Source: a virus. Taken from it: DNA of 37,831 bases. Both the position numbers and the translations under genes were made by a program. Below the pieces are notes generated by a model that saw only the letters and a program-made list of their open reading frames with translations, did no database searches and had not been told where the DNA came from. The stretch covers positions 1 to 37,831 of IMG/VR virus record IMGVR_UViG_3300045988_095268, one strand, 5' to 3'. Of the stretch, positions 7,401-37,302 are shown one piece after another; positions within the stretch are counted from its first letter, which is position 1, and each line of letters starts with the position of its first letter.

Positions 7401-10400
7401 GCAGGCGGACGATCCTGCGGCCGTTATGCACATGTTCCAGCTGACGCAGGAGGAGCAGCGCCTTATGCAGCCGCTGCGGGAGTATGCACAGGCCCGTCGA
7501 GACGCTCTCAGTTTAAGCGCGGAAGAAATGGCTGACGCGATTGCAGAGAAAGCAAAGGACAAGCGCATTCCCGGCGCTTACAGCCGTGAGACGATGGAGC
7601 GCAACAGTTATGATATTTTCGGCAAGGAAAACCGCCAGTACGCCGAAACGCTCAACGAGCAGTATTTTACGCCGGTGCACAAGGCGGTTGCAGACCGGAC
7701 ACAATACATCAACACGGTAAAGGACCGGATCGCAAAGCTGAATTTAAGCAAGCACGAAAGCGCACTTGTGCAGATGATGCTGGAAGGCGAGAATGGTGCG
7801 GCTGCGGACTATATCGCGGTGAAGAAAATCAAGGTAACGAGCAAGCTGCAGGAACGTGTCGCAAACGGCGTTGCGGAATTCCGCGCCATTTACGATGATA
7901 TGTACAACAAGCTCTGCGATACCCTGATCGCAAACGGCATGTGGGACAGTGTGCCGGGATACCTCAAGGACTATGCGCCGCATTTTACTGTAGACAAGCC
8001 GGACACCAAACTTGCGCGCGTGCTGTACAAATTCGGCATTAAGCCGGACAGCACGCTCAATCTTCCGACTCCGATTGCCGGCATTACAGACGACCGCAAC
8101 CCGGGTAAGAAGTGGTTCGGCAACCTGCTGCACCGAAACGGTGAACTGACGGAGTTTGACGCGGTGGCCGGGTTTGACCGATATGTAGAGACGGCCGGTG
8201 ACGTTATCTATCTTACGGACAGCATTCAGAACCTGCGCACACTGGAGGATGCAATTCGGTATCGGCTTTCCGATGACGGAACCAGGCAGAAAATCAACGA
8301 GATTCGCAAAGACCGCACGTTGGATCCACTCGAACGCCACCAGCAGACGCAGGACGTTTATGACAAGAATGTTGATGACACGAAAAAGCTGCTCGACCAG
8401 AAACACGCGGGCATGGGCGGCTATGTTGCCAATCTGCACGAGTATATCAATAATTTGGCAGGCAAGAAAGCCCGCGCGGACCGTGGCTGGGAGGAAATGC
8501 TCGGACGCCAGATGTACAACGTGGCAAAGAATGTTGAGGGTAGAGTGGCGGCGAATATGATCGCGCTGAACCCCGGCTCGTGGATCACAAACTTTATTCC
8601 GCTCACACAGGCTGCCGGTGAGGTGAGCACGCCGAACCTGCTGCGTGCGGCTTACGACACGGTAAAGAGTGCGATTCGGGACGATGGTTTTACGGATGGT
8701 TCGGTATTTTTGACCAACCGTGAGGGCACGCAGATGCTCGACCGGACGCTGACGCGCAAGGTCTCCGATCTGGCTGGAATGCCGATGGAGGCTATCGACC
8801 ATTTCACGGCCAACATTGTGACGCGCGGCAAGTACCTCCAGAACATTGCAGACGGTATGACGGTAAACCAGGCGTTTGAAAATGCCGATGCGTTTGCTTC
8901 TAACCTGATGGCGGACCGCTCCAAAGGTGCACAGCCGACAGCATTTAATGCCGTCAACCCGATTCGCAAGATGTTTACCATGTTCCAGCTGGAGGTCAAT
9001 AACCAGCTGAGCTACTTAGCAAAGGACCTGCCGAGGGCCAAGCAGAACAAGGCTGCGCTTGCATGGTCGTACACTAAGATTTTTGCCGGTGCTTATCTGT
9101 TTAATCAGGTATACCACCAGCTGACCGGCCGTGATTCGGCGCTTGACCCGATCGGCATGATCGTTGATGCGTTCGGATTGGACGACGATGACGACAAGGA
9201 CAAGAAGAAAAAGTCCGGCGTGGACATTGCGCTTGACCTTGGCGAAAATATTGCGGAACAGATTCCGTTTGTCGGCGGTCTGCTCGGCGGCGGCCGTGTG
9301 CCGATCTCCTCGGCCTTCCCGGATTTCGGCAAGCTGAAAGAGGAATATGAGAACGGCTACGACAACAAGCGCATTGCGCTTGACGCGGCAAAGAGCGCGG
9401 CCAACTCGGCGGCGTACCTGCTGCTGCCGTTCGGCGGCGGTGCTGTAAAGAAGGCGCTTGAGGGCGCGGCAACCGTATATGCGGGCGGCAGCTACAGTCT
9501 GGACAAGAACGGCGAGAAGATCCTGCAGTTCCCGCAGTACGGCCAGAGTCCGAGAGATTGGGCGCAGGCTATGCTGTTCGGCAAGTCGTCGCTGCAGGGC
9601 GCGCAGGAGTGGGCTGACGATGATTACAACAGCCTGAACGCAGACGAGACGAAGGTATTCGAGGAGCTGCGGCAGCGCATGAGCTGGAACAAGGACGAGA
9701 ATGGCAACACTATCGACAATTCCGAGGCGGTATTTGCGGCTATTAAGGCCATGAAGGCAACCACTGCGGATGCCAAGGAGAAATACGGCAACAAGAATTA
9801 CAAGGAGATTGCGGCGGCTTCTATCCGTCAGATGCTGCTTGCAAACAACGACCTTACGCCGATGCAGAAGAAAACGCTCGACCGCGAACTGATCACAGCC
9901 GGTGATTCCGCAGACTACACATCTCAGGATGCGTTTGATATTAGCCAGTATGTGCGCGAGAGCAGACAGGACGACGCGGCCGAGGCAATTAAGCACGGTA
10001 TTTCGGTTGATGATTTCGTCAAGTGGGACAGCGTGATTGAGCAAACGCTTGCGGACAACTATGTTGACGCCAAGGACTACGAGGACGGCGAGAACAACCA
10101 GCTTTACGCGAAAAACGCTGTGCTGCAGAACATCCTCGACGAGTATGACAAGGACGGCGAACACACGGATGCGGAAAAGAACGCGTTTGCGGACTATGTG
10201 CTCGTTTCCGCCATGGGCGAGAGCGACAAGGAGCGTTGGGATGCGGTAAAGGGTACGGTAAATGCAACTGACTTTGTACAGTTTGCGGGCGACATGGCAA
10301 CGTACAACAAGGAGTACAAGGGTTCCGGCATGAGCAAGAGCGATGCGATGCAGGCCATTCTCAATGGCTATGGCAATCTGTCCGACACGCAGAAGGACGC

Positions 10401-11496: not shown

Positions 11497-13041
11497 TTAA
11501 ATGTTAGAGGTTTGAGGTATAGCAATTTTGGGGTGGATTGTCAGATGGAGGTCGCTTTTGGCTTTGCCGTAGACACGGACGGTTTTATGGTAGTCTATAC
11601 GGCGGATTACCTGCTTTAAGAGAAGATTTTGTTCTTTTGGATCTTCCAGTGTGGGGTATACGTCCAGCACATGACGGATGAGTGGCGCGGAGTTCTTCTG
11701 CGCTTCAATGTCTGTCTGTTTATTATGGAGTTTGCGCTCGATCTCGTGCTTTGTGTTTAGCAGTGCGGTCTGATCCTGGCTGATTGCGGATTGACGCTGC
11801 AGGAACGTTTCCTTACTGTAAAAACCATCTTCGAGCAGTTCATAGGTACGCTGCAGACGGCGGTTTATATCGGTAAGCTGCTTCTCGATGTTCTGCAGTG
11901 CGTTTTCTTCGCTTTTCGTGTCCAGAAGGGCAGGAGAGCTGAGTTCGATCTTGTGAAGAAATTCGCGGAGAGACTGCAGGACAAGGCTTTCCACATCTTC
12001 AAACAGACTGGAGACGGTAGAGCAGGACGGATTTTCACAGCCAAACCGGACTTTATCTTCACGGCGGTATGGATGGCGAGACATCAGTTTACCGCATTGG
12101 TCGCAGTAGACCAGTCCGGCCAGCGGATTCATCTGCTGGTATTTGCGCGGTACACGCGGCGTAACGGTGTCTTTCATGCGCTGTTGGACGCTGTACCAGA
12201 CGTCCCGCGGGATGATCGCTTCGTGTATTCCTTCGTACAGCTCACAGTTTTTATTGACCGGTCGCTTGGTTATCAATTTGCCTTTTTGCACGATTTTTGT
12301 GTTGACCTTCATGGCACTGGGGATAAAACCGGCATAGTGCGGGTTCTGCAGGATGGCACGGGTAGTCGCGGGCACCCATTTTTTATCGAGCGGTGTGCGG
12401 ATCTTCATAGCGTTCAGTTCGTTGGCGATTTCGGAAAAGCCTTTGCCGGAAAGATACATATCGTAGATGGTGCGGATTACACCGGCCTGCGGCTCAACCG
12501 GTCGAAGAGACCAGCCGCGGCCGTCCAGTTTGTAGCGTTCATAGCCGTAAGGCGGACGTCCGGGAACGTAGTGGCCTTCTTTCTTTGAGGCTCTCGTTCC
12601 GGCCAGCTGACGGCGGCGTATCATGCGGTACTCCTGCCGCGACATGAACAGGCCGAACTCCATCCATTCCTCATCCGCCTCCTGCGTGGGGTCGTAGGTT
12701 TTGGACGGCGTGACAATCAGTGTGCCCGAAAACTTAAACGCTTGGGCGACGATGCCCTGATCTATGGTATCGCCGCGCGCAAGACGCGAGGTTTCGGTGA
12801 CGAGGACGCCCTTCCAGCGGCCATCCTCCACCTCGGAGAGCAGCTGCTGCATGACGGGACGGTTTGCGATACGCTCACCGGAGACGATTTCGCGGTATAT
12901 CGCGCCGATCGGCAGGGCACGGGACTTGGCAAGCTCCATGAGGATATGCTCGTGCCGGGCGAGGGTATCGCCTTCGCCGTGCGCCTCTGCTTCGAGGTCG
13001 GCACGGGATTTGCGTAAATACATGGCGTATTCCATTTGCAT
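11497..13041 (-). CDS. Large serine recombinase (514 aa), probable prophage integrase
   Basis: The N-terminal resolvase-type catalytic domain reads AMYLRKSRADLE...TLARH...YREIVSGERIANRPVMQQLL...VLVTETSRLARGD. A recombinase domain, a Cys-rich zinc ribbon (CDQCGKLM...FGCENPSC) and a C-terminal coiled coil follow. It occupies the classic position at the end of the lysogeny module. Confidence 0.9.
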   Translation of the reverse strand: MQMEYAMYLRKSRADLEAEAHGEGDTLARHEHILMELAKSRALPIGAIYREIVSGERIANRPVMQQLLSEVEDGRWKGVLVTETSRLARGDTIDQGIVAQAFKFSGTLIVTPSKTYDPTQEADEEWMEFGLFMSRQEYRMIRRRQLAGTRASKKEGHYVPGRPPYGYERYKLDGRGWSLRPVEPQAGVIRTIYDMYLSGKGFSEIANELNAMKIRTPLDKKWVPATTRAILQNPHYAGFIPSAMKVNTKIVQKGKLITKRPVNKNCELYEGIHEAIIPRDVWYSVQQRMKDTVTPRVPRKYQQMNPLAGLVYCDQCGKLMSRHPYRREDKVRFGCENPSCSTVSSLFEDVESLVLQSLREFLHKIELSSPALLDTKSEENALQNIEKQLTDINRRLQRTYELLEDGFYSKETFLQRQSAISQDQTALLNTKHEIERKLHNKQTDIEAQKNSAPLIRHVLDVYPTLEDPKEQNLLLKQVIRRIDYHKTVRVYGKAKSDLHLTIHPKIAIPQTSNI

Positions 13042-22864: not shown

Positions 22865-22913
22865 ATAGAGTTTGCGCAAAGTCAATAGATATATAGAGTT
22901 TGCGCAAAGTCAA
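22865..22913. repeat. Two 21-bp direct repeats, each containing the perfect palindrome TTTGCGCAAA. Candidate operator/iteron between divergent units.
   Basis: atagagtttgcgcaaagtcaa occurs at 22865-22885 and again at 22893-22913 (28-bp period). A TATAAT lies at 22927-22932, just downstream. Confidence 0.85.
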
Positions 22914-22988: not shown

Positions 22989-23783
22989 ATGATTTATCAA
23001 AAACAGGAGTGCAATGGTGCGCTCTATCAGATGTGCCTTTATTCCATGGGCACGATGCCGGGCATGTCGCCCAGGCAGAGGGCGGGCAGACGGCGGACAA
23101 CCGAGAAGGCCAAGCAGGAGATCAACCGGCGACAGCGCAAATGGCGGCTGATGCAGCTAATCAACGCCAATTTTGTGAGCGGTCGGGATCTGTTTGTTTG
23201 CTTGACGTATGCGCCGGAGGCGTCCAGAGCGCGGGCTTTGGAGAAATTCCATGCGAAGATGAAAAAGGCGTATGCAAAGATTGGCCTTAAATACAAGTAC
23301 ATAGCAGTAACAGAGGAGCACGACATGGACGGCGAGCCGGTGCGGCTGCACCATCACCTGATTCTCAGCGGCGCGCACGGCGTGCAGCTGGCCGATGTGG
23401 TGCGTGATTGCTGGGCTTCCGGTCTGGCCGATGTGCGGACTCTGCGCGAGGGCGCGGACTTTTTTGAGGACACCGCCATCTATCTGCTCAAGGAGGACAG
23501 CCACAAGGGCAAGGGCGCCCGCCGGTACTCCACCAGCCGCAATTTGACCCCGCCTGCAGAGCCGGTTCGGCTCAGACTGGGCGAGGAGGAGGAGGCCGAA
23601 GTGCCGCCCGGCGTGAAGATCATCGAACATGTGCAGAACGCGAATGAGTTCGGCAGGTATGAGGTTATGGTCGGCCGCATTTACAATCAGGCGGCGTTTG
23701 ACGCATGGTGGCAGATACAGCGGCGCAGGGCTGCTCCCGATCCGTGGGAACGGCTGCGCAGGAGACGGCAAAGAAAAGTTTAA
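22989..23783 (+). CDS. HUH-superfamily rolling-circle replication initiator (Rep, 264 aa)
   Basis: Motif I FVCLTYA, motif II (HUH) VRLHHHLILSG, motif III (YxxK) TAIYLLKE. RBS agaggtgatttATG. Confidence 0.7.
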   Translation: MIYQKQECNGALYQMCLYSMGTMPGMSPRQRAGRRRTTEKAKQEINRRQRKWRLMQLINANFVSGRDLFVCLTYAPEASRARALEKFHAKMKKAYAKIGLKYKYIAVTEEHDMDGEPVRLHHHLILSGAHGVQLADVVRDCWASGLADVRTLREGADFFEDTAIYLLKEDSHKGKGARRYSTSRNLTPPAEPVRLRLGEEEEAEVPPGVKIIEHVQNANEFGRYEVMVGRIYNQAAFDAWWQIQRRRAAPDPWERLRRRRQRKV

Positions 23784-24509: not shown

Positions 24510-24534
24510 AACTATCAACAGGAGTGTGGACAAA

Positions 24535-25113
24535 ATGAAAATTGGCTATGTGCGTGTGTCAACGGTCGAGCAGAACGAGGCGCGGCAGGTGGAGGCGCTG
24601 CAAAAACACGATATCGAGCGTTGGTACATTGAGAAGATCAGCGGCAAAAATCTGGATCGCCCCAAGCTGCAGGAGATGCTCGACTTTGCGCGTGAGGGCG
24701 ATACCGTGTATGTGCTCGACTGGTCGCGTATCAGCCGCAGTACGAAGGACCTGCTGGAACTGGTTGATCGGCTCGGCGCGAAGGGCGTGCACCTGTACAG
24801 CCTGAAAGAAAACTTTGACACCTCGACACCGCACGGACGTATGGTGCTGACCATCCTCGGCGCGATCAACGAATTTGAACGAGCAAACATGCTCGAACGT
24901 CAGAGGGAAGGCGTTGCGATTGCCAAGCGCGAGGGCAAGTACAAGGGGAGGAAAAAGACGGAGATTGACGATGTTGCCGGTGCATATCACGCCTGGGTAA
25001 CACGGCACAAGAGCAAGGCAACGATCGCACGGGAAAACGGGATCAGCAGACCAACCTTAGACCGGCTGCTCAAGGAGTACGAGCGGGAGCATATTGCAAA
25101 ATCAAATCTGTAA
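24535..25113 (+). CDS. Small serine recombinase (resolvase/invertase family, 192 aa)
   Basis: MKIGYVRVSTVEQNEARQ (catalytic Ser), DTVYVLDWSRISRS, MVLTILGAINEFERANMLERQREG, and a C-terminal HTH SKATIARENGISRPTLDRLL. The ATG at 24535 sits 10 nt after CAGGAG. Confidence 0.9.
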   Translation: MKIGYVRVSTVEQNEARQVEALQKHDIERWYIEKISGKNLDRPKLQEMLDFAREGDTVYVLDWSRISRSTKDLLELVDRLGAKGVHLYSLKENFDTSTPHGRMVLTILGAINEFERANMLERQREGVAIAKREGKYKGRKKTEIDDVAGAYHAWVTRHKSKATIARENGISRPTLDRLLKEYEREHIAKSNL

Positions 25114-25248: not shown

Positions 25249-25773
25249 ATGCAGCAGCGAGGTAGTAAGTATGACCAGAAAATCAAAGACGAGGCGCTGG
25301 CACTGATTGCGTCCGGCGTGAAAATCTCCAATGCGTCGGTGCGGCTCGGAATCCCCAAGAGCACGTTATCGGATTGGGTACATACCCAGAACGAGAGCGA
25401 CGAGGACGGTGTGGCTGCACGGCGGGAGATACGCCGCAAGCAGATTGCACGGTGCGAGAAGATCGGGGACAAGGTGCTCCGGGCGCTCGACCGCAAGGCT
25501 GAGGCCGCCGCGAAGGACACCCGGACCATCAATGACGGACTGGCGGTGCTTGAGAAAGCGGCCAAGGACGGCGTGATCGCGCTGAGTGAGGCCGAGGTGG
25601 CAAGTCTCAGAAACGTTGTAAGCGATTACACCGGCGTCGGCCTGCGCGAGCTGGCCGGAACCATGAAGGATGTTGCGGCAAGACAGGAAACGCTGGAGCA
25701 GCACCTCGGCGAGAAGGACGGCACCGGTGTGCAGATCACGTTTGTGGATGGTGCGGAGGAACTGGCAGAATGA
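25249..25773 (+). CDS. terS: Terminase small subunit (174 aa), HTH-containing
   Basis: RBS gggaggtgattggATG. N-terminal HTH ASVRLGIPKSTLSDWV. Its stop overlaps the TerL start (ATGA). Confidence 0.6.
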   Translation: MQQRGSKYDQKIKDEALALIASGVKISNASVRLGIPKSTLSDWVHTQNESDEDGVAARREIRRKQIARCEKIGDKVLRALDRKAEAAAKDTRTINDGLAVLEKAAKDGVIALSEAEVASLRNVVSDYTGVGLRELAGTMKDVAARQETLEQHLGEKDGTGVQITFVDGAEELAE

Positions 25774-27116
25774 ACAGCTTTGTGATTCCGAAACCCTATC
25801 CGAAACAGGTTGAGTTTATGAAAAGCCGGTCGCATTACACGGCTTATGGCGGCTCACGAGGCGGCGGCAAGAGCTTTGTCGCACGACTCAAGGCCAATAT
25901 GCTGTGTTTGAGGTATGACGGCATTCAGATTCTGTTTATGCGCCGGACGTACCCGGAGTTGCGGGAAAACCACATTATTCCGGCTATGCGGGAGCTAAAA
26001 GGTATTGCGGAGTACAAGAGCGCGGACAAGGCGTTTGAGTTTCCAAACGGCTCACGGCTCAAGTTTGGTTACTGCCGGAACGACAGCGATTTACTCCAGT
26101 ACCAAGGACAGGCTTATGACGTTATTTTTCTGGAGGAGTGCACGCTTTTCCCTGAGAACGTTTTTACAACAATGACCGAGAGCAACCGCTCATCCGGTCA
26201 GATGCGGGAGTTCTTCCCGCCGAGAATGTACCTGACTTGCAACCCCGGCGGCGTTGGGCATGCCTGGTTTAAGCGGTTGTTTATCGATCGCGATTATGTC
26301 AAGCAGGAACGATCTGAGGACTACACGTTCATTCAGGCCACGGTCTATGACAATCCGTGGCTTGTCAAAAACTCACCTAACTATGTGCAGTCGCTCGAAA
26401 ATCTGCCCGAGGACCGCAAGCGGGCGATGCTGTACGGCGATTGGGACGTATTCGAGGGACAGTATTTCCCCGAGTTCCGGCGCGAGACGCACGTCTGTGA
26501 GGCTTTTCCGATTCCGGAGCACTGGACGCGGTACAAGGCGCTCGACTACGGCTTTGATATGCTGGCCGTCGGCTGGTTTGCCGTGGATGAGAACGGCACT
26601 GCGTATCTTTACAAGGAATTCTGCGAGGGCAAGGATTTAGGAGAAGGACACGATGGACTTATATTATCTGACGCGGCTAACGCCATCCTGGAGCGCTCGG
26701 ACGAGTTGGAACGCGATGCGATTACCTTTGCACCGCCGGACCTCTGGAACCGGCGGCAGGACACCGGACGCAGCGCGGCAGACCGCTTTGCGGAATGCGG
26801 TGTGTTTATGGAGAAAGCAAAGAACGACCGCGTGCTCGGCTGGCTCGACCTGAAGGAATACCTGAAGGTACGCAAGGACACCGGCAAGCCGAGTTTGATG
26901 ATCTTCTCCAACTGCACGCAGACCATCAAGAGCCTGCCGATGCTGCTGCACGATGAGAAGCACCCGGATGATGTGGCAAACGATCCGCACGAGTACACCC
27001 ACCCGGCGGACATGCTGCGGTACTTTGTGGCCGGCCGCCCGATCGCGGCGAGTGAGCCGAAGGAGTTTAACGAACTGACTACCGAGGAGGAAATGGGAAA
27101 TGTATTTAGCTATTAG
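25770..27116 (+). CDS. terL: Terminase large subunit (448 aa)
   Basis: Walker A YGGSRGGGKSF, Walker B-like YDVIFLEECT, and a C-terminal nuclease region with acidic motifs (ALDYGFD; DDVANDPHEY). Confidence 0.9.
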   Translation: MNSFVIPKPYPKQVEFMKSRSHYTAYGGSRGGGKSFVARLKANMLCLRYDGIQILFMRRTYPELRENHIIPAMRELKGIAEYKSADKAFEFPNGSRLKFGYCRNDSDLLQYQGQAYDVIFLEECTLFPENVFTTMTESNRSSGQMREFFPPRMYLTCNPGGVGHAWFKRLFIDRDYVKQERSEDYTFIQATVYDNPWLVKNSPNYVQSLENLPEDRKRAMLYGDWDVFEGQYFPEFRRETHVCEAFPIPEHWTRYKALDYGFDMLAVGWFAVDENGTAYLYKEFCEGKDLGEGHDGLILSDAANAILERSDELERDAITFAPPDLWNRRQDTGRSAADRFAECGVFMEKAKNDRVLGWLDLKEYLKVRKDTGKPSLMIFSNCTQTIKSLPMLLHDEKHPDDVANDPHEYTHPADMLRYFVAGRPIAASEPKEFNELTTEEEMGNVFSY

Positions 27117-27660
27117 CGCCGTTGCGGCGATGTGTGCTTTTCTGGCGGCTGTGCAGACCCGAAACGCCAAGCGCTTGGGCGAGGATTTGCGGCAAAAGAC
27201 CGTGGAAGCGGAATCCTTTCAGCTGACTGCGCGGACGATGGAGGAACGCTTGCACACCGAGGAGGCGGCGCGCGCTCAGCTTGCGGACCGCATTACCAAG
27301 GTGGAGACCGCCCTGCGGGAGAGTGAGGACACGGCCTGCCGGTTGCGGCAGGAGCTGCAGACCGGACGCAAAGCTGCGAAGGAGCTGCAGGAAGAACTCG
27401 ACTCCACCAAGGATGCACACGACGCGGCAATCAGCGCGATGTGGAGCGCTCGCAACGAGGTTGATAATCTCAAGCAGGAGCGCCGCAAGCTGAATGAGGC
27501 GCTCATCACCGAGCGGGAGACCGCAGAGCGCTGGAAAGAGGAATTTCTCAAGGAACAGGCGTACCGCCTGAGCACCGAGGGCCGCATTATGCGTGAAGTC
27601 AACAATCTACTCCGTTATGACGGCACCGCCCACGGGCAGGAGGAATTAAGCGATGAATGA
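27100..27660 (+). CDS. N-terminally membrane-anchored long coiled-coil protein (186 aa) between TerL and portal
   Basis: TM segment MYLAISAVAAMCAFLAAV followed by continuous charged heptad-like sequence. Overlaps TerL by 17 nt and the portal gene by 8 nt. Confidence 0.6.
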   Translation: MYLAISAVAAMCAFLAAVQTRNAKRLGEDLRQKTVEAESFQLTARTMEERLHTEEAARAQLADRITKVETALRESEDTACRLRQELQTGRKAAKELQEELDSTKDAHDAAISAMWSARNEVDNLKQERRKLNEALITERETAERWKEEFLKEQAYRLSTEGRIMREVNNLLRYDGTAHGQEELSDE

Positions 27661-29248
27661 GCAGAAAATCACGCTCACGGCTGACAGGGTGCAAGCCGAG
27701 TACGAAAAAGGTGTGCAGTACAACACCGGTATCGGGCTGTACGAGAACGTAAAACAGTGCGAGAACTTTGTGGAAGGGAAGCAGTGGGAAGGACTCAAGA
27801 GCAAGAACCTGCGTCCGATCACGATGAACGTGCTCGACCCGATCGTGCATTACAAGGTTGCGCAGATCGTTTCCAATGACGTTGATCAGGAGGTTGAGCC
27901 TTTCCTTCCGGATGAGCAGGCCGAGTATGCGGCGAAAATCCTTGAGCAGAGCATTGACCGCGTGGTGGAGCGCACCAAGCTGAAAAGTAAGCACCACATG
28001 GTGCTGCGCGACGCCTGCGTGGATGGTGACGCGGCGCTGTATTTCTACTTTGATGCAAGCAAGCAGTCCGGTTTTGGCGGGGTGCAGGGCGAAATCTGCG
28101 CCGAGCAGGTGATGAACACGAACATTCTGTTCGGCAATCCGAGCAATTCCAACGTGCAGGAGCAGCCGTACCTTATCATTGTGCGTCGCCGGCCGGTATC
28201 TGAAATCCGCAAGGACGCGAAGCGGCTCGGCTGCAAGGAATGGGAGACCATTGAGGGCGAGTCCGACGGCCTGTACAAGGGTGATGATGAGCAGAACAAT
28301 AGCGACAGTCTCGGCAATGAGCTTGTGCGGTTTTGGAAATCCGAAGACGGCCGCGTGCACTACTGCCGCTCCTGCGGGCGTGTGATGATCGAGCAGGATG
28401 TGGCGACGGAAATGACACTCTATCCCGTCGCGTACATGAGCTGGAAGCCGCGGAAGAACTGCTATCACGGCGTGATGGAGATCAAACCGCTCATCAACAC
28501 GCAGATTGAGATCAACAAGCAGTGGACGGCGCTTGCGCTCATGCTGCGGAATAATGCTATACCGAAATTGGTATACAACCTCAATAAGTTCCCCAAGGGC
28601 TGGGATCCGGATGCGACTTCTATCGGCGTGACCGGCGACGTGAAGGACGCGCTGACCGGCGTTGCGGGCTCGATGCCCATTCCCACTGAGGCAACCGGTA
28701 TTACGTCCACCATGACGGACGCGCTCAAGAGTGTTTCCGGTGCCAATGACGCGGCGCTCGGCAACGTCAAGAATCCGGAGAACAGCAGTGCAATCGTAGC
28801 GGTGCAGACCGCGAACGCTGCGCCGCTTGCGCTGACCAAGATCGCATATTACCAGTTTGTCGAGGACTACGAGCGGGTGCTCATCGACATGATGCATGCC
28901 TATTACGGTATGCGTCAGGTCAAGATCACGGACGAGGCGACAGACCCGGAAACCGGTGACACGCAGGAGCAGACCCGCGTGGAGATGTTCGACTTCGGCA
29001 CTCTCTCGGTCGAGGCCCTCGACCTAAACATCCATATCGGCGAGGCGAGCTACTGGAGCCGCATTTTGCAGATCTCGACGCTCAACAACCTGCAGACGGC
29101 GGGTGTTATGCCCAATATGGTTGAGTTCCTCAGCCGCATGCCGGAAGGCTCGGTTAAGGATCAGGAAGGTTTGGTCGAGGCTGCAAAGAGAGTGCAGCAG
29201 CAGGCCAGCATGCAGCAGGCATTACAGGGAGGTTTAACGAATGGATAA
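27653..29248 (+). CDS. Portal protein (531 aa)
   Basis: Supported by size, position after the terminase, and the N-terminal NFVEGKQWEG motif seen in podovirus-type head-tail connectors. The 432-aa antisense ORF is judged spurious. Confidence 0.75.
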   Translation: MNEQKITLTADRVQAEYEKGVQYNTGIGLYENVKQCENFVEGKQWEGLKSKNLRPITMNVLDPIVHYKVAQIVSNDVDQEVEPFLPDEQAEYAAKILEQSIDRVVERTKLKSKHHMVLRDACVDGDAALYFYFDASKQSGFGGVQGEICAEQVMNTNILFGNPSNSNVQEQPYLIIVRRRPVSEIRKDAKRLGCKEWETIEGESDGLYKGDDEQNNSDSLGNELVRFWKSEDGRVHYCRSCGRVMIEQDVATEMTLYPVAYMSWKPRKNCYHGVMEIKPLINTQIEINKQWTALALMLRNNAIPKLVYNLNKFPKGWDPDATSIGVTGDVKDALTGVAGSMPIPTEATGITSTMTDALKSVSGANDAALGNVKNPENSSAIVAVQTANAAPLALTKIAYYQFVEDYERVLIDMMHAYYGMRQVKITDEATDPETGDTQEQTRVEMFDFGTLSVEALDLNIHIGEASYWSRILQISTLNNLQTAGVMPNMVEFLSRMPEGSVKDQEGLVEAAKRVQQQASMQQALQGGLTNG

Positions 29249-29477
29249 CACGAATGAGAGCAAGGCGGAACGCTTTGTAAGACTGGCAGAGCCGCGCGTT
29301 TCCCGCGCGTGCAAGGCAATTAGTCTGATCGGCAATTTTGCTACGGGTGACTATGAGTTCACTGAGCAGCAGGTCGCTGCGATGTTTGCGGCGATGCAGG
29401 AGGAACTGGACGCGCAGAGAGCGAAGTTTAAGAAGGGCTCGGAGCGAAAGTTCCGGTTTGATGGAGGGACACGATGA
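29241..29477 (+). CDS. Small hypothetical head-module protein (78 aa)
   Basis: Overlaps the portal stop and is coupled to the next ORF (ATGA). No motif recognised. Confidence 0.5.
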   Translation: MDNTNESKAERFVRLAEPRVSRACKAISLIGNFATGDYEFTEQQVAAMFAAMQEELDAQRAKFKKGSERKFRFDGGTR

Positions 29478-29815
29478 AAGTTTTTGAAGATTTACGGCTT
29501 TCCGATGTGACGGAGCTGGCGACGAGTGCAGATTATAGAGATCGCTTTCTCGGAGAATACCTGGAAACGAAGATCCGCTATGAAAAACTGCATAAAATGC
29601 TGATCAAAGCAGAAGCCGGCAAGCTGGACTTCACGCCGACGTGCCCGATCGGCCTCTTGGAGTCGCAGGCGCGCTGCATGGGAAATTATCTTCATGCGCT
29701 CGAAGTTCGTGCTCAGTACGAGAACCTTGATCTGACTTTCCTTATCAAGTCTGCACTGACAGATTTAGAGAGAGCCGAAAGCGACTGCCCGACAGTATGC
29801 TGTTCGACTGACTGA
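29474..29815 (+). CDS. Hypothetical helical protein (113 aa), possibly of the crAss001_48/SaV-like small phage protein type
   Basis: The pattern DRFLGEYLETKIRYEKLHKML...LLESQARCMGNYLHALEVRA resembles that family. The assignment is weak. Confidence 0.4.
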   Translation: MKVFEDLRLSDVTELATSADYRDRFLGEYLETKIRYEKLHKMLIKAEAGKLDFTPTCPIGLLESQARCMGNYLHALEVRAQYENLDLTFLIKSALTDLERAESDCPTVCCSTD

Positions 29816-29823
29816 CAGCATTT

Positions 29824-30221
29824 CCGGCGTTCAGCCTAACGGAACGCTGCATTCCTGAACGTGGTGCTTCATCACGCAAGGGTTCACCCGCCGATTTGGC
29901 GGGTGACAGCGGATCCGCAGCTATTCATGCGGCGTTAGGCTGAACGCCGGAGCAAACAAAAGAATATTTCCGGCGTTCGGACGGGCGGGAGCTGACCTCA
30001 CCCGCCCCATTGATTCCCCTTATTTCTTTCTGATGGCGGGCACCCTCGTTCGGGTCGAGGGCGTCCGTCCGAGCGCCGGAATACGATATTTTCCTGCACT
30101 GCGGCGGGCGTGGGATTCTCGCCATATTATCCCGCGTCCGGGTTACGCATTCCCCGTGCGTGCAAGGATACAAGCGGGTGCAGTACCAGCGGAACGGTGC
30201 TGCGTCCGCCGGAGTGCAGGA
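29824..30221 (+). ncRNA. Candidate large structured noncoding RNA (or structured DNA element). Three tandem ~115-130-nt modules, each closed by a 16-18-bp stem.
   Basis: Closing stems: 29824-29841 pairs with 29933-29950 (18/18). 29968-29984 pairs with 30065-30081 (17 bp, one G-U). 30092-30107 pairs with 30206-30221 (15/16). Internal hairpins: 29885-29907 (tcacccgcc/ggcgggtga), 29985-30005, 30043-30061, 30145-30161, 30180-30203. There is no credible ORF in the 466-nt gap. The strand is assumed from the surrounding late operon. Confidence 0.45.
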
Positions 30222-30281
30222 ACACACGATAAACACACGGCAATGAGACTCAAGTCTTTTGCATATAGGAGGATTGTCTAA

Positions 30282-31274
30282 ATGGATTGGAAAACCAGCA
30301 ATCATATGGACGGAAGCGAGATCCGTGACAGTATCGGTTTACAGTATTTTGCCGAGGACGGCAATACATCCGACACCGGCGCGGACATGGACGGTTTTAA
30401 CGGCGACGATTTCCTTGCGGCGCTTGAAGGCAATGACGATCTGGAAAACCAGCAGACCGCCGCCGAGGGTGCAGAGGAGACCGTGCAGGACGGTGCGGAA
30501 AACCAGCGCGCCGAAGAGCAGCAGGAAGAACCGGAGAATCAGCCGCCAGAGGGCGGCGAAGTACCGCCGGAAACGGCAGAACAGCCGGTACAGACCGTGC
30601 CCCTCGTCTACAACGGACAGCAGATCCTGCTGCCGGCAGACGCAGTGCAGGCCCTGACCGGTGCACTCGGCGCGAACCCGGTCGAACTGCTCCAGAAGGG
30701 CATGAATTATGACCGCAAGGCCGAGCGAGAAATGCGCGTACTGGATCAGTACGCCGAGGCCGCTGGCATGAACCGGCAGCAGTACCTTGAACAGCTGGAG
30801 GGCGCACGCAATGAGCAGCTGCTTTCGGCAGAAATTGAGAAGTGTCGCGCAGAGTTTCCGGAAACCCCGGATGCGGCGCTTAAAGCAATCGCCGAGGGCC
30901 GCATGGCTTCCCAGCGTGCAGCCGCGGCACAGGCCGCCGAACAGCAGCGCGCACAGCTTACCGCCATGCAGCAGCGCATTGATCAGACTGTTGAACAGGC
31001 ACGAGAAGAAGCCGATGCACGCGCGTGGGAAGAATATGTTTCACTCTCTGGCGTGAAAAGTTTCGAGGAAGTGCCAAAACGCGTGCTTGAATTGGTGCAG
31101 CAGGAAGCTATGACGCCCGTTGCCGCGCACTGGCGCTATCAGGCTGAACAGAATGCACAGGCTGTGCAGATCGAAAAGAAGAACAACCAGAACAAAATGA
31201 CAAGCCCGGGAAGTGTGCAGGGCAATAAGGGCGACACGAGCGACCCGTTCCTGCGCGGCTTGCTGGGACTGTAA
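30282..31274 (+). CDS. Scaffolding protein (330 aa)
   Basis: Very acidic N-terminus, Ala/Gln/Glu-rich helical body, position immediately upstream of the major capsid gene. RBS ataggaggattgtctaaATG. Confidence 0.65.
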   Translation: MDWKTSNHMDGSEIRDSIGLQYFAEDGNTSDTGADMDGFNGDDFLAALEGNDDLENQQTAAEGAEETVQDGAENQRAEEQQEEPENQPPEGGEVPPETAEQPVQTVPLVYNGQQILLPADAVQALTGALGANPVELLQKGMNYDRKAEREMRVLDQYAEAAGMNRQQYLEQLEGARNEQLLSAEIEKCRAEFPETPDAALKAIAEGRMASQRAAAAQAAEQQRAQLTAMQQRIDQTVEQAREEADARAWEEYVSLSGVKSFEEVPKRVLELVQQEAMTPVAAHWRYQAEQNAQAVQIEKKNNQNKMTSPGSVQGNKGDTSDPFLRGLLGL

Positions 31275-31292: not shown

Positions 31293-32348
31293 ATGCCTAT
31301 TTACCTTACTGAGCAGTATTCAAAAGCTGTAGAAAAGCTGTATACCCATACCTCGTTCCTGCGTCCGCACTGCAAGGCGCACGTTGACATGATCGGCAAG
31401 AAAACCTGCAAGGTTTACCAGATCCTCACCAGCGAGCTGAACGACTACAAGCGAGAGGGCAAGGACCGCTACGGCGTGCCGAATGATGTACAGGACATCG
31501 TACACGAGTACACCATCACGCAGGACAAGTCGTTTACCGCCACCGTAGACAAGGGCGACGGCTCTCAGCAGGCTATCAGCAACAAGGCCGGCCAGTATCT
31601 GCGCCAGCAGATCTCCGAGAAGTGCGTGCCGTACGGCGACAAATACGGTTTCAGCCGCATTGCACGATTCGGCCATATTCAGGGTGTTGCTGCTGCACCG
31701 ACCAAGAGCGACATTATCTCGACCGTCTATGATGCTGCCGCCTATATGGACAATCACTATGTACCGGATGATGGCCGTATCCTTTTTGTCCGCGTGAGTG
31801 ACTACAAGAAGATCATCCTCTCGGACGAGTGGGTCAAGCTGGACAATCTGGCGGGCAAGCAGCTGCCTACCGGCGTTGTCGGTCAGGTTGCGGGCTTTAC
31901 TGTTGTAAAGGTTCCCGACCGACTGTTCCCGACCGACGTTTATCTGATGGCAATTCACGAGCAGGCGCTTGCGTTCCCGTATACCATTGACGATACCAAA
32001 ATCCACATCGATCCCCCCGGCACTTCCGGTTCTCTGGTTGAGGGCCGTCAGATTTTCGATCTGTTCGTGCTTTCCAGCCGTGCGGATTCGGTTGTCGTTG
32101 TGGCTAAGGCGGCAAGCCAGCAGGCGTGCACCGTAGCGATCGCTTCGCACAGTGCGACCGTTACGGCGGCAGATGCGGACGAAATCTGGTACACGCTGGA
32201 CGGCTCGGACCCGCGCTTCTCCGCAAATCGCATGCTGGTCGCAAGCGGCGGCACGGTTGCAACGACCGCAGGCCAGACCATCCGCGTGGTTGCGTTCGGC
32301 AAGGCCGGCAAGCTGACTTCGAATGTGGCTGAGGCTACGGATAAGTAA
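31293..32348 (+). CDS. Major capsid protein (351 aa), HK97-fold N4-gp56-like type, with a C-terminal Ig-like extension
   Basis: Follows the scaffold gene, has a strong RBS (aaaaggag) and is followed by a strong terminator. The overall pattern resembles the N4-gp56 capsid family. The tail CTVAIASHSATVTAADADEIWYTLDGSDPRFS...IRVVAFGKAGKLTS resembles chitobiase-C/Fn3-associated Ig-like domains. Confidence 0.7.
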   Translation: MPIYLTEQYSKAVEKLYTHTSFLRPHCKAHVDMIGKKTCKVYQILTSELNDYKREGKDRYGVPNDVQDIVHEYTITQDKSFTATVDKGDGSQQAISNKAGQYLRQQISEKCVPYGDKYGFSRIARFGHIQGVAAAPTKSDIISTVYDAAAYMDNHYVPDDGRILFVRVSDYKKIILSDEWVKLDNLAGKQLPTGVVGQVAGFTVVKVPDRLFPTDVYLMAIHEQALAFPYTIDDTKIHIDPPGTSGSLVEGRQIFDLFVLSSRADSVVVVAKAASQQACTVAIASHSATVTAADADEIWYTLDGSDPRFSANRMLVASGGTVATTAGQTIRVVAFGKAGKLTSNVAEATDK

Positions 32349-32356
32349 AGACCCAG

Positions 32357-32388
32357 GAGGGCGGGCGGCTGCCCGCCCTCTGTTTGTT
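32357..32388 (+). terminator. Strong hairpin terminator/attenuator after the capsid gene
   Basis: gagggcgggc-ggct-gcccgccctc forms a 10-bp GC stem followed by tgtttgtt. Confidence 0.8.
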
Positions 32389-34711: not shown

Positions 34712-35746
34712 ATGACGTTTGATGAAAGCAAAATTTCAGCCGAAAAGGCGGCAGAGACCGGCGTGCAGAGCCAGCCGGACGCGCTGACCGGCTCGGCCGA
34801 GGAAAACAAGAAGGTTTTTGATCTGCTGCCGCTGCTTATTATCGAGAGGCTTAACAAGCTGATCGAGGCATTGCAGGCCGCAAACAGCGCCGGACAGATC
34901 GGCGCCGCGGCGTTCCCCAACGTGGCCGGCTGCTCGGTTCAGGAGCAGCTGCAGATCATTCAGAAGAACCTCGAGGACTACCGGGACGCGGTAAAGGTGA
35001 ACGGCGCGGAAAACGTCGGCATGACACCGTTTGACGGCGTGAACGCAAACACCGTGCAGGCGGCGCTCGAGCAGCTGCAGGCAAACCTTGTGCAGTATAT
35101 CAATACTGTTAAATCCGCAGAGGGCGCGGGCAGGGTCGGCATTACGCCGTTCAAGGGCGTGACGAGCGGGACCGTGCAGGCTGCACTTGAGGAAATCCGC
35201 AGACAGATCGACGATGTAACGGCGGGCGTTATCCCGGACTACGGCGTCACCACTATCAAGCTGGCGCTGCAGGCCGTGACGGCGGACAGGCTGGCGCAGG
35301 ATGTGCTTGATATGATCGAGGCCGCAGAGCCGGCACGCAGCACCAACGAGCTGGACGATTACACAATGGAGACCGGCCGCTTTGTCAACGCCGGTGCGGG
35401 ATGGAACACCTTCCGGTTCCGGCATGCGTTTGAGGGCGTGCCGGTCCTGACGGTGACGCCGAAGGAATTCAGCGGTTTTTGCGAGATTAAGAACGTGACT
35501 GCGGAAGGATTCCTCTATTGCCTGCGTCAGCCGAGTTTGCAGGGCGGCAGTGCGACGAAGGGCACGGTGACAACGGCTACCGGCTATATCGGCTCGGACA
35601 CCGGCTCGTCACCCAGTCACAGTCAGATCACCTATGTTTCCGGTGTGACGCTGCCGCAGGTCGTTCTGCCGACGCTCGGCACGATTACAACGGCAGAGAA
35701 GATCGAAATGGATTATATCGCTATTGAGTTTGGAGGTGACGAGTAA
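34712..35746 (+). CDS. Tail fibre / receptor-binding protein (344 aa) with N-terminal fibre repeats and a C-terminal H-type-lectin-like domain
   Basis: Three repeats of the G..(I/V)G..PF.GV...TVQAALE.L type (QIGAAAFPNVAGCSVQEQLQ, NVGMTPFDGVNANTVQAALEQLQ, RVGITPFKGVTSGTVQAALEEIR). The C-terminus GWNTFRFRHAFEGVPVLTVTP...IKNVTAEGFLY is lectin-like. Confidence 0.6.
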   Translation: MTFDESKISAEKAAETGVQSQPDALTGSAEENKKVFDLLPLLIIERLNKLIEALQAANSAGQIGAAAFPNVAGCSVQEQLQIIQKNLEDYRDAVKVNGAENVGMTPFDGVNANTVQAALEQLQANLVQYINTVKSAEGAGRVGITPFKGVTSGTVQAALEEIRRQIDDVTAGVIPDYGVTTIKLALQAVTADRLAQDVLDMIEAAEPARSTNELDDYTMETGRFVNAGAGWNTFRFRHAFEGVPVLTVTPKEFSGFCEIKNVTAEGFLYCLRQPSLQGGSATKGTVTTATGYIGSDTGSSPSHSQITYVSGVTLPQVVLPTLGTITTAEKIEMDYIAIEFGGDE

Positions 35747-37128
35747 TGCTCAAGAAGATTCAGCAGGATTTCAGCTATTACTCGCATGAGTTTAAGGATA
35801 ACTACCGAAAAGGCGTACACCGTCTGCGCACCATCCTTGCCAGCAGGGCACAGGCACAGGCGTTTGTAAGCAATGCGGGCGGCACTGCGGTGGTGCTCGG
35901 CTATGAGCCGAGCGCGCCGGATAAAAACGCACAGGAACTGTATGCGCTGCTTGCGGCTTCGCCGTATATCGACGATGCGGTGCAGACGTTTTTGGGGAGC
36001 ATTTACGAGGCGGGCGCGGAAAGCCAGGATGCGATGTATTCGGATAGTGCCCGCTGTCTGGAAATCCTGCACGATCCAGTAATGGCCCGTGCCGCAGGCG
36101 CAGGCGCGGTAAGCGCCGGAAAATGGATCGCAACTCTGGCGGGACAGAGTTGCAATTTGTACAGGGATATGAACGCGGTTGCCGCCAGCGATATCGCTAT
36201 GACGGCAGTGGCCGCAAGCGAGACTGCGATGGCGGCTGTCATCGGCAACGCAACGGCGCTTAACGCTGTTGTAACTTCTCATGTTGCACTCAATGCTGTT
36301 GCCGCAAGCGAGACTGCGATGGCGGCTGTCATCGGCAACGCAACGGCGCTCAATGTTGTTGCAACCTCTCAGGCTGCGATGAACGCGGTAGCTGCAAGCG
36401 AAACTGCTATGACGGCGCTCATTGCAAACACCGCAGCGTTCAATACGGTGGTGACTTCTCATGTAGCGATGAACGCGGTAGCTTCGTCCTATGTGGCTGT
36501 GGCCGCAGTCTACGAGAGCGCGGTTGCGGTTGAAGCTGTCAAGGCAAATGAAACAGCCTGGGCTACCCTTACGGGAGCGTCCAGCGCAGTTATGGGCAAG
36601 GCCGCGGCGAAGCTGGCCGGTTTGAATCCTGCGGACTATGCCGACATGGATGCGATTGCTGCATCCTCGACCGCTATGGCGGCGATTGCGTCGTCCTCGA
36701 CCGCTATGGCGGCAATCATCGGGAACAGCACTGCGCTTAACGCAGTTGTTTCGTCCTCGACCGCTATGGCGGCGATTGCGTCGTCCTCGACCGCTATGGC
36801 GGCCGTTGCATCGTCCAACACGGCCCGCACAGCTATCACGAACTCTGCAACGGCAAAGAACGCCCTTGCCTCCAGCCCTTTGAAAACAACCGTGACAAAG
36901 GGCAACGGAAACGGTTGGGAGAACCGTACCATCCGCAATGGCATGGGATATCTAATCAGTTGCTACAACGCAAACAGCGGTGGAGAGGCTGGATCTACTT
37001 GGTACAAGTTGGATGGGGCGCAAACCAGCCAGCCCGCAGGCACTACAAATGTGGGGAAATTTTTCACATCTTCCTTGGCAATTTACTGGTGGTCTTCTAC
37101 CTCCAGCGTGACCTATATCCCCTGTTAA
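35746..37128 (+). CDS. Tail fibre protein (460 aa) with a 10-residue-periodic Ala/Ser/Thr repeat shaft and a small C-terminal head domain (expressed cassette A)
   Basis: Its ATG overlaps the previous stop (TAATG), with ggaggtgacgag upstream. About 60% of the protein consists of xxS.TAMxAV-type decamers. The C-terminus is NGNGWENRT...STSSVTYIPC. Confidence 0.7.
   Translation: MLKKIQQDFSYYSHEFKDNYRKGVHRLRTILASRAQAQAFVSNAGGTAVVLGYEPSAPDKNAQELYALLAASPYIDDAVQTFLGSIYEAGAESQDAMYSDSARCLEILHDPVMARAAGAGAVSAGKWIATLAGQSCNLYRDMNAVAASDIAMTAVAASETAMAAVIGNATALNAVVTSHVALNAVAASETAMAAVIGNATALNVVATSQAAMNAVAASETAMTALIANTAAFNTVVTSHVAMNAVASSYVAVAAVYESAVAVEAVKANETAWATLTGASSAVMGKAAAKLAGLNPADYADMDAIAASSTAMAAIASSSTAMAAIIGNSTALNAVVSSSTAMAAIASSSTAMAAVASSNTARTAITNSATAKNALASSPLKTTVTKGNGNGWENRTIRNGMGYLISCYNANSGGEAGSTWYKLDGAQTSQPAGTTNVGKFFTSSLAIYWWSSTSSVTYIPC
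36211..36350 (+). repeat. 90-bp-period tandem coding repeats in the fibre shaft. Two 50-bp perfect copies at 36211-36260 and 36301-36350.
   Basis: gccgcaagcgagactgcgatggcggctgtcatcggcaacgcaacggcgct is repeated exactly. A third, diverged copy starts at 36391. Confidence 0.9.
36664..36803. repeat. Inverted-repeat partner block in fibre gene A. Two copies (36664-36713, 36751-36803) of a 50-53-bp sequence whose exact reverse complement lies in cassette B.
   Basis: tcctcgaccgctatggcggcgattgcgtcgtcctcgaccgctatggcggc. The reverse complement of 37622-37674 equals 36751-36803 (53/53). Confidence 0.95.
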
Positions 37129-37145: not shown

Positions 37146-37302
37146 ACGCATTAACATTCTAAGACGTACCACGCAACTTTATATAGGCGCTTATGAGGCA
37201 GTTTAAGCTGAATGTTACGTCTGAATACTGCAAAACAACCGAGAAAGCCGGTGAATACGGCGTTATCGCCGCGGTTGCGTGCGCATTAGAATGTTAATGC
37301 GT
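37146..37302. repeat. 17-bp perfect inverted repeats (37146-37162 and 37286-37302) bracketing the spacer between the two convergent fibre cassettes
   Basis: acgcattaacattctaa versus ttagaatgttaatgcgt. The right copy is internally palindromic (cgcatta-gaatgt-taatgcg). A third GAATGTTA copy lies at 37211-37218. Confidence 0.9.

Follow-up and report, generated by a model that had tools for sequence, protein, structure and literature searches.

The 37,831-nucleotide (nt) virus record IMGVR_UViG_3300045988_095268, analysed here over its full length and referred to as the window, raises the question of what occupies the 466 nt (29816-30281) between the stop codon of an open reading frame (ORF) of the Sequestin family (29474-29815) and the ATG of the probable scaffold gene (30282). 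An initial annotation, made from the letters alone, had described this gene-free gap as non-coding and as folded into three stem-closed units. We found that these units, the modules M1, M2 and M3, belong to a previously uncatalogued structured-RNA family with types A, B, C and D that has no match among the curated families tried, and that they are very probably functional structured RNA elements on the plus strand. The non-coding description held, as the only two ORFs of at least 60 amino acids (aa) in the gap are rich in Arg and Pro and lack a credible ribosome-binding site. The features of the gap are as follows.

29822-29952, plus strand: module M1, type D; perfect closing helix of 19 base pairs (bp) and multi-branch core; begins 6 nt past the Sequestin stop codon
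29968-30081, plus strand: module M2, type A; closing helix P1, inner helix, pyrimidine-rich loop, hairpin P4
30091-30222, plus strand: module M3, type C; closing helix P1, GCCAUAU-loop hairpin, central domain, hairpin P4
30223-30281, plus strand: leader from module C to the scaffold ATG; small hairpin 30246-30258, ribosome-binding site AGGAGGA 30267-30273
30033-30281, plus strand: ORF of 82 aa, Arg-rich, without a credible ribosome-binding site
29925-30305, minus strand: ORF of 126 aa, without a credible ribosome-binding site

Inverted-repeat pairs confirmed the three closing stems and showed each to be slightly longer than annotated. The stem of M1 (29823-29841 with 29933-29951) is paired at 19 of 19 positions; P1 of M2 (29968-29987 with 30062-30081) spans 20 positions, made up of 18 Watson-Crick and two G-U pairs; and P1 of M3 (30091-30110 with 30203-30222) spans 20 positions that include one G-U and one G-G mismatch, the latter found again in most type C variants. 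The three internal hairpins previously pointed out were also present in the minimum-free-energy folds, at 29884-29906 in M1, at 30043-30061 (P4 of M2) and at 30180-30203 (P4 of M3, with the loop AGCGGAAC). The fold of the M1 core contains two more hairpins, at 29860-29876 and 29915-29932. In M2, a helix formed by 30001-30006 and 30035-30040 encloses the pyrimidine-rich, anti-Shine-Dalgarno-like loop UUGAUUCCCCUUAUUUCUUUCUGAU (30010-30034), and in M3 one hairpin loop bears a near-invariant GCCAUAU and the central domain, closed by GUCCG/CGGGU, contains CAAGGAUAC.

Folded as RNA, the whole gap reached -233.4 kcal/mol against -170.0 +/- 6.5 for shuffled sequences (z = -9.7) and resolved into exactly three stem-closed multi-branch modules. 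When the modules were folded singly, the z-scores against shuffles were -9.0 (M1), -5.1 (M2) and -6.3 (M3) on the plus strand and -9.6, -3.8 and -3.5, respectively, on the minus strand; M2 and M3 therefore prefer the plus strand, on which their scores are the more negative. Because the gap contains no promoter-like or terminator-like site, co-transcription is plausible; no -35/-10-like site was found on either strand between 27000 and 32400.

A cmscan of the whole window against Rfam 15 returned no match at the gathering score, and at E <= 10 the interval 29700-30350 gave chance-level matches only, the best being abiF with 21.7 bits against a cut-off of 37. Among the families without a match were ROOL, GOLLD, OLE and raiA, which the initial annotation had named as models to be tried. 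The loci of six relatives gave tRNA matches only, the window modules had no Rfam tRNA match, and ARAGORN found no tRNA or tmRNA gene in the window. A blastn search of the gap against 50,697 GenBank phage records was likewise without a match; by portal protein, the Bacillus phages of the Page/Pony group come closest among isolated phages, with just 25% identity. Instead of one large ornate RNA, the gap holds a row of separately folding modules, each ~105-150 nt long; phages that share an identical neighbouring gene differ in how many they carry.

Three other known elements were considered and rejected. A phi29-type packaging RNA (pRNA) had no Rfam match, and a canonical large terminase is present at 25770-27116. 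For a riboswitch there was no Rfam riboswitch match, and P1 is a stable helix of 19-25 bp without an alternative terminator or a sequestering helix beside the start codon. Integron attC sites are imperfect hairpins with extrahelical bases that carry R''/R' core sites at their ends and adjoin an integron integrase. Only M1 has GCCTAAC ... GTTAGGC (29834, 29934), located inside the perfect 19-bp stem with 12 more paired bases outside, and no core sites of the form RYYYAAC ... GTTRRRY were found in modules A and C; there is no IntI-type context, the tyrosine recombinase at 166-1146 matching the general phage integrase family.

Compensatory changes and shared anatomy

Covariation, which the initial annotation had proposed to test, was assessed in relatives, and compensatory changes were found to support the closing helices and an internal hairpin. 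We aligned 18 distinct type A sequences and 19 distinct type C sequences with MAFFT and compared P1 of type A, and P1 together with P4 of type C, with 500 shuffles and with controls in which the 3' partner was slid. For type A P1, 99.2% of the cells fell in standard pairs, four pairs were changed on both sides (14 cells) and one G-U was invariant; the covariation score was matched by none of the 500 shuffles, and sliding the 3' partner by 1-3 columns left only 34-46% paired. For type C, 93.2% of the cells were paired and 10 of the 27 pairs were changed on both sides (37 cells), values that were again reached in 0 of 500 shuffles, with slid versions pairing at 32-54%. RNAalifold, applied to a model-fitted alignment of 26 type C sequences, gave 31 pairs, 12 of them with compensatory changes, including the helix that closes the central domain. 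Moreover, the closing helices of type B occur as four quite different sequences, each fully paired, and P4 of type A is swapped for entirely different hairpin sequences in relatives. One-sided stem changes in relatives were almost all from G-U to G-C or A-U, which favours the plus strand, since the same changes, read on the opposite strand, would be A-C mismatches.

A covariance model of type C scored M3 at 143.9 bits on the plus strand and 41 on the minus strand, M2 at 49.3 and 25.6 bits (E = 2e-9), and M1 at 21.8 and 19.9 bits (E = 0.002). The plus-strand score was the higher one in every relative tested, and the model found no further copy in the window beyond the three adjacent modules. 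Judging from these scores, type A is clearly, and M1 marginally, related to type C. Two earlier suggestions were upheld in part. The proposal that G-U use favours RNA-level pairing on the plus strand applies to M2 and M3, where the relatives strengthen it, but not to M1. The proposal that modules 1 and 2 are paralogous is borne out by their common outer stem and by the opening motif ATTTCCGGCGTTC, present at 29820-29832 and 29966-29978; on the other hand, this repeat is the boundary of a 146-nt insertion or deletion (indel), and the similarity of M1 remains marginal.

The modules share a common plan. Their closing helix is G+C-rich and measures 18-25 bp across variants, with an inner end conserved in all types as RCGGGCG paired with CGUCCGY, which holds a near-invariant G-U. 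The core is a three- or four-way junction, and a hairpin stacks on the 3' strand of the closing helix; its loop reads YGCGGAAC in most modules of type C and, for several Agathobaculum lineages, in type A as well. One or more pyrimidine-rich loops are exposed (AUUCCCC, CCUCCU or CUCCUUUCU), and types A and B have a large one, for example CCUU(A)UUUCUUUCU, ACCUCCU or CUCCUUUCUA, whose sequences resemble the anti-Shine-Dalgarno 3' tail of 16S rRNA. Pyrimidine tracts are scarce on the plus strand, with six 20-nt tracts of at least 17 pyrimidines in 37.8 kb. Pairing of the A loop with the scaffold ribosome-binding site was considered and rejected, as the complementarity is inconsistent between lineages and does not covary. 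A further candidate, P4 of type C together with CAAGGAUAC as a mimic of 16S helix 45, was judged a coincidence: the likeness is lost in lineages of 60% identity, where the loops are GACA or GCGA.

The array in related phages

About 50 relatives, phages as well as prophages of Agathobaculum and Butyricicoccus, share this locus. We collected related loci by scanning IMG/VR for the capsid, the portal and DNA patterns, by scanning GTDB genomes with a portal alignment and by exact-protein look-ups; a scan of GTDB genomes with the major capsid protein gave no relative, and the portal alignment later recovered some. According to the records, the hosts belong to Agathobaculum, A. desmolans ATCC 43058 among them, and to Butyricicoccus, and one contig was binned as Bulleidia. 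All phages with at least about 58% portal identity to the window have, between portal and scaffold, a conserved small ORF, zero to three exchangeable small ORFs and the ordered modules. Their order is always A, an optional B, an optional tRNA-like element and C, followed by the scaffold gene. Among 44 distinct arrays, 21 read A-B-C, 11 A-C and eight A-B-tRNA-like-C; one consists of A alone, one is the D-A-C array of the window, and two are cut by contig ends. Type A is present in every complete related array, and type C ends each of them except in L003, where a deletion has removed C, and L228, whose only module is an A/C hybrid.

The content of the array changes between close relatives. Contigs with an identical upstream Sequestin protein of 113 aa carry two, three or four elements (A-C, D-A-C and A-B-tRNA-like-C). 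Two contigs with this identical protein, L254 and L255, read ...CAGCATTTCCGGCGTTC followed by GGACGGGCGG and are missing precisely the 146 nt that separate the repeat copies, so that M1 corresponds to a 146-nt indel bounded by the 13-nt direct repeat. Independent assemblies from four samples (L250-L253) all contain this 466-nt gap unchanged, with M1 in it, which shows M1 to be real. In other relatives, an exact-pattern scan of IMG/VR for M1 gave no matches, and BLAST against the collected related loci returned only identical copies.

Some relatives carry, between B and C (between A and C in L225), a 134-nt tRNA-like element that is absent from the window. It was located at the following positions.

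L015, 3632-3771: tRNA-like element
L017, 3645-3784: tRNA-like element
L019, 3632-3771: tRNA-like element
L225, 2268-2405: tRNA-like element
L249, about 3123-3256: tRNA-like element

The element scores 39-46 bits against the Rfam tRNA model and retains acceptor, D and T arms in which compensatory changes occur. The place of the variable arm is taken by a 63-nt insert bearing a conserved ACAUUGRCGAUAC. There is no conservation of the anticodon loop (UCU, CUU or GCU, with a closed GAGC tetraloop in L225), and for this reason the element is probably not a decoding tRNA.

Other DNA can also enter the interval. In L224, of an Agathobaculum lineage, an ORF lies between A and C. The leader from C to the scaffold ATG measures 55-70 nt in relatives or about 190 nt in the L007 group, where the longer stretch has a duplicated ribosome-binding site and a 17-codon mini-ORF, MSLKPVGLYPYSAAVRR (in L007 at about 3825-3880). 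At about 3856-3885, L014 encodes MDWKPVGL followed by a stop, resembling a duplicated scaffold start. Mosaic breakpoints fall inside the array in L016, L019, L020 and others: compared with the window, their module A is 98-99% identical and module C 78-82%, and their portal is 93-99% identical and their capsid protein 35-72%.

Relatives without modules have a different arrangement. In L176 and L177 (portal 44-49% identical) and in L230, the portal is followed by the scaffold with neither small ORFs nor modules, at a spacing of 46, 33 and 170 nt, respectively, and the type C model found nothing in 21 such portal-to-scaffold loci without the island. Agathobaculum and Butyricicoccus prophages with the island carry A and C as well. 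The modules thus appear to travel with the accessory island and not with rep. A pattern scan for the G+C-rich type C gave mostly chance matches in high-GC phages, with only L129 and L141 as new true copies, and the type A pattern matches in L027 and L057 were rejected as chance. Every true copy in IMG/VR, GTDB genomes and assemblies lies at one locus and in one orientation.

The accessory island and possible roles of the modules

The genes of the window that bear on the role of the array are listed below.

25770-27116, plus strand: large terminase
27653-29248, plus strand: P22-type portal
29241-29477, plus strand: 78-aa ORF overlapping the portal stop codon; first island gene
29474-29815, plus strand: Sequestin-family gene, 113 aa; Pfam PF21825 (crAss001_48-related), E = 8e-17; precomputed label 'Sequestin'
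30282-31274, plus strand: probable scaffolding protein gene, 330 aa; assigned by position only (portal, scaffold, capsid order)
31293-32348, plus strand: major capsid gene; PHROG 422 major head protein, E = 3e-36
22989-23783, plus strand: HUH Rep; PF23343, PHROG 3584 (G2P/ORF2 family)

The array forms the downstream edge of a small accessory island set between portal and scaffold, which are normally adjacent head genes. This is probably an anti-defence island, because the Sequestin gene lies upstream and other small cassettes fill its slot in relatives, such as a 101-aa protein with a weak DUF4406 match. The Sequestin family (PF21825) binds 3' cyclic ADP-ribose (3'cADPR) and blocks type I Thoeris, acting as an anti-Thoeris sponge (bioRxiv 10.1101/2025.07.12.664507). 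The 78-aa ORF is present in every module-bearing relative examined and absent from the module-less L176, L177 and L230. Its 176 homologues found all lack a precomputed Pfam domain, and the few named ones come from Agathobaculum. The ORF has no Pfam or PHROG match, and AlphaFold2 predicted a two-helix hairpin (predicted local distance difference test, 70) for which Foldseek found no match in the PDB. We had considered it as a possible RNA-binding partner of the modules; the Pfam, PHROG and Foldseek searches speak neither for nor against this. A terminator-like hairpin (32356-32381) lies 3' of the capsid gene.

Several further observations concern the surroundings. The junction between the 78-aa-type and Sequestin-type ORFs is bracketed by a 20-23-bp inverted repeat, GAAGTTCACCAAGGTGACGG ... 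TCGTTTTCTTGGTGAATTTC, in L002 (3261-3403), L013 (2776-2918) and L020 (3156-3298), which may be a further RNA structure overlapping coding sequence. Just 5' of rep, overlapping palindromes and repeats at 22865-22911 (ATAGAGTTTGCGCAAAGTCAATA) are a candidate double-strand origin or operator. A stem-closed structure of unrelated sequence follows the tail-fibre gene (35746-37128) at 37146-37302, in intergenic sequence; an A+T-rich helix of 17 bp closes it and a second helix of 9 bp lies within (z = -4.4). The 2335-aa ORF at 4402-11409 has as its only Pfam match a C-terminal M23 peptidase domain (residues 2176-2270); it is a candidate for a cell-wall hydrolase carried by the virion, or for an ejection protein, in a phage resembling podoviruses. 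Three recombinases are encoded in the window: a tyrosine integrase (166-1146), a large serine recombinase (11497-13041, minus strand) and a small one of the DNA-invertase type (24526-25113), whose gene lies between rep and the small terminase.

As to what the modules do, the reading we favour, held tentatively and falling somewhat short of probable when taken as a whole chain, is that they are co-transcribed structured RNAs excised into stable small RNAs that act in trans. The array would be transcribed on the plus strand within the late portal-to-capsid transcript. RNase III cuts near-continuous double-stranded RNA of about 20 bp or more within a transcript, and the closing helices have 19-25 pairs in all variants; host RNase III would cut these, and RNase P and RNase Z, which process tRNA-like folds, would cut the tRNA-like element of relatives, as in the release of rRNAs and spacer tRNAs from the rRNA operon. 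The products would be stable RNAs of ~100-150 nt acting in trans on a host or defence component and not needed for head-gene expression itself, and recombination between shared helix sequences would add and remove modules. Their orientation with transcription, the G-U use and the tRNA-like gene embedded in relatives suggest that the modules act as RNA; the ~20-bp helices as RNase III sites and the tRNA-like element as an RNase P/Z site point to the release of stable small RNAs; and an accessory, trans-acting role is suggested by the island-less relatives, which need no modules, and by the dispensability of B, D and the tRNA-like element.

Several points weigh against this reading. Excision and trans action are steps that we infer. 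A and C are nearly always present at fixed positions, A after the last accessory ORF and C near the scaffold start, which fits a cis role equally. M1 is a near-perfect palindrome without strand preference in its fold z-scores, and it is only marginally homologous to A and C. The clade sampled is fairly narrow, and some of the covariation reflects common descent and not independent events. In addition, single-stranded DNA, too, tolerates G-T pairs better than any other mismatch, and strand preference alone therefore cannot separate RNA from plus-strand single-stranded DNA.

A bolder extension, which we consider improbable, is that the array is a phage operon of anti-defence RNAs, in which the excised modules and the non-decoding tRNA-like element serve as decoys or sponges. 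We were led to it by the location in the island, by modules that come and go like cassettes, by conserved loops that are exposed and by the stability of the closing helices. Conceivably, the modules mimic the 3' tail of 16S rRNA or tRNAs and soak up a host nuclease or sensor; it is also conceivable that they are aptamers that sequester an immune signalling nucleotide and complement the protein sponge Sequestin. The set of RNA cassettes would then differ from phage to phage.

The modules might instead act only in cis on the late mRNA, as processing sites, 5' or 3' stabilisers, translation tuners or processive antitermination elements, either to reconnect portal and scaffold expression after the insertion of the island or to set the amounts of accessory and scaffold/capsid products. 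We regard this as a possible but rather unlikely account. The positions suit it, with A starting 6-10 nt beyond the stop codon of the last accessory gene and C ending, in most cases, 55-70 nt before the scaffold ATG, as does the near universality of A and C in the clade, in an array without its own promoter or terminator. The closing helices have a length recognised by RNase III, as at the intercistronic sites of T7, the anti-Shine-Dalgarno-like pyrimidine loops could bind ribosome-binding sites, and the hairpin after the capsid gene could be modulated by an upstream antiterminator RNA of the EAR or put type. However, relatives in which the portal directly abuts the scaffold express the same head genes without any module, and B, D and the tRNA-like element are gained and lost between phages with identical neighbouring genes. 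ORFs may separate A from C, about 190 nt of extra sequence may separate C from the scaffold, and the A loop, as read from the sequences, does not covary with the scaffold ribosome-binding site across lineages. The multi-way junctions with conserved loops are also more elaborate than known processing or stabiliser hairpins, and neither EAR nor any other cis-regulatory family was matched in Rfam. The processing or stability element put forward in the initial annotation stays a live rival; a cis role accounts for the fixed positions of A and C but explains neither the cassette polymorphism nor the elaborate conserved junctions.

The same annotation had offered a single-strand origin (sso) for the HUH Rep, and we find it very unlikely that the modules are such origins, or primosome-type hairpins, exposed in the displaced plus strand for lagging-strand priming during rolling-circle replication. 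The rolling-circle Rep of the G2P/ORF2 family is indeed there, with a close homologue (at least 82% identical) in most module-bearing contigs; the favoured strand is the Rep-coding one; the ORFs scanned included no phage primase, helicase or polymerase; and rolling-circle plasmids can carry two ssos side by side, and ICEBs1 carries one. Yet L176 has a PF23343 Rep likewise upstream of its packaging genes and no module within 5 kb of the portal. Origins of the ssoA type have a conserved CS-6 terminal-loop motif (TAGCGT/A) and promoter-like -35/-10 elements in a folded stem; neither strand of the gap contains TAGCG(T/A), no promoter-like site was found, and the closing helices are G+C-rich throughout. 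A tRNA-like gene shares the array and its orientation in relatives, module content differs between otherwise identical phages, the array lies about 7 kb downstream of rep and not just upstream of the double-strand origin, and a near-invariant G-U and conserved loops are typical of RNA recognition. Still less credible is selfish or neutral palindromic DNA, that is, elements resembling miniature inverted-repeat transposable elements, or recombination linkers for cassette exchange, with hairpins as a mere by-product. The modules are bounded by inverted repeats sharing TTCC...GGAA ends, recombination at repeats adds and removes them, and mosaic breakpoints fall inside the array; nevertheless, they have no other copy in the window and a single locus and orientation elsewhere, no target-site duplications, strand-specific G-U usage, co-varying internal hairpins far from the termini and single-stranded loop motifs conserved down to 60% portal identity. 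That the gap codes for a small protein, from the 82-aa or the 126-aa ORF, is almost certainly wrong: both ORFs exist, but beyond their composition and missing ribosome-binding sites, the equivalent ORFs in relatives vary in length and frame (45-161 aa), substitutions follow paired helix changes and not codon third positions, and whole-module indels are tolerated.

Whichever role applies, the array adds a well-supported, uncatalogued structured-RNA family to the few elaborate phage RNAs of unassigned role, with a distribution limited to one clade of gut phages. Its architecture is unusual, consisting of autonomous stem-closed modules that behave like cassettes, sometimes joined by a tRNA-like element with a non-conserved anticodon loop. 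Its adjacency to an anti-Thoeris sponge gene, in an island that is filled differently between near-identical phages, makes it a concrete candidate for an RNA-level contribution to phage-host conflict; if cis-acting, it would exemplify a phage repairing operon expression after accessory genes had split tightly coupled head genes. The cultured strain Agathobaculum desmolans ATCC 43058 has a prophage with modules A and C (contig NZ_JNJN01000002.1; modules at 5456-5564 and 5581-5705 of L226), which makes the family testable.

Comparison with known systems

The rRNA operon and the RNase III sites of T7 offer a likeness that concerns the possible working of the array only, not membership: long helices of ~20 bp flank structured units in a polycistronic transcript and, in the rRNA operon, a tRNA or tRNA-like element may lie between units. 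The T7 sites differ in being simple hairpins with an internal loop, in contrast to the multi-way junctions with conserved loops seen here. The ssos of rolling-circle plasmids and integrative and conjugative elements (ssoA, ssoU and the ICEBs1 sso) are likewise non-coding, strongly folded, about 130-300 nt long and orientation-specific, belong to replicons with an HUH Rep and can adjoin in pairs; unlike them, the modules have no CS-6 or promoter-like site, and a tRNA-like gene lies inside the arrays of relatives.

Bacterial Y RNAs (YrlA and YrlB, as in the rsr-yrlBA-rtcBA locus of Salmonella) have ends that pair in a long stem and pyrimidine-rich or other internal loops; their genes stand in tandem, and the RNAs are cut from the operon transcript and associated with a tRNA-like fold. 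The modules recall them in the end-pairing stem, the internal loops, the tandem units and the tRNA-like fold, but here that fold is a separate element and not part of a module, and no match of the Y-RNA type was found in Rfam. No Ro60/TROVE gene was found among the ORFs scanned, which were not all those of the window. Pseudo-ToxI repeat arrays and RNA anti-CRISPRs consist of short (~30-36 nt), near-identical units that mimic a known host RNA. They share with the modules the tandem RNA units in a phage, the recombination-driven copy number and the setting among anti-defence genes; the modules differ in measuring 105-150 nt, in their mutual divergence and in mimicking no identified host RNA.

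GOLLD is frequently located in prophages and near tRNA genes, and similar properties are described for ROOL (PMC5737381). The array resembles both as a complex multi-junction structured RNA of gut or rumen Firmicutes with no known function. It gives no match to their covariance models and is embedded in a head operon without its own promoter, and whereas GOLLD and ROOL are each a single fold of 580-800 nt, the array is a string of autonomous modules of 105-150 nt in variable number.

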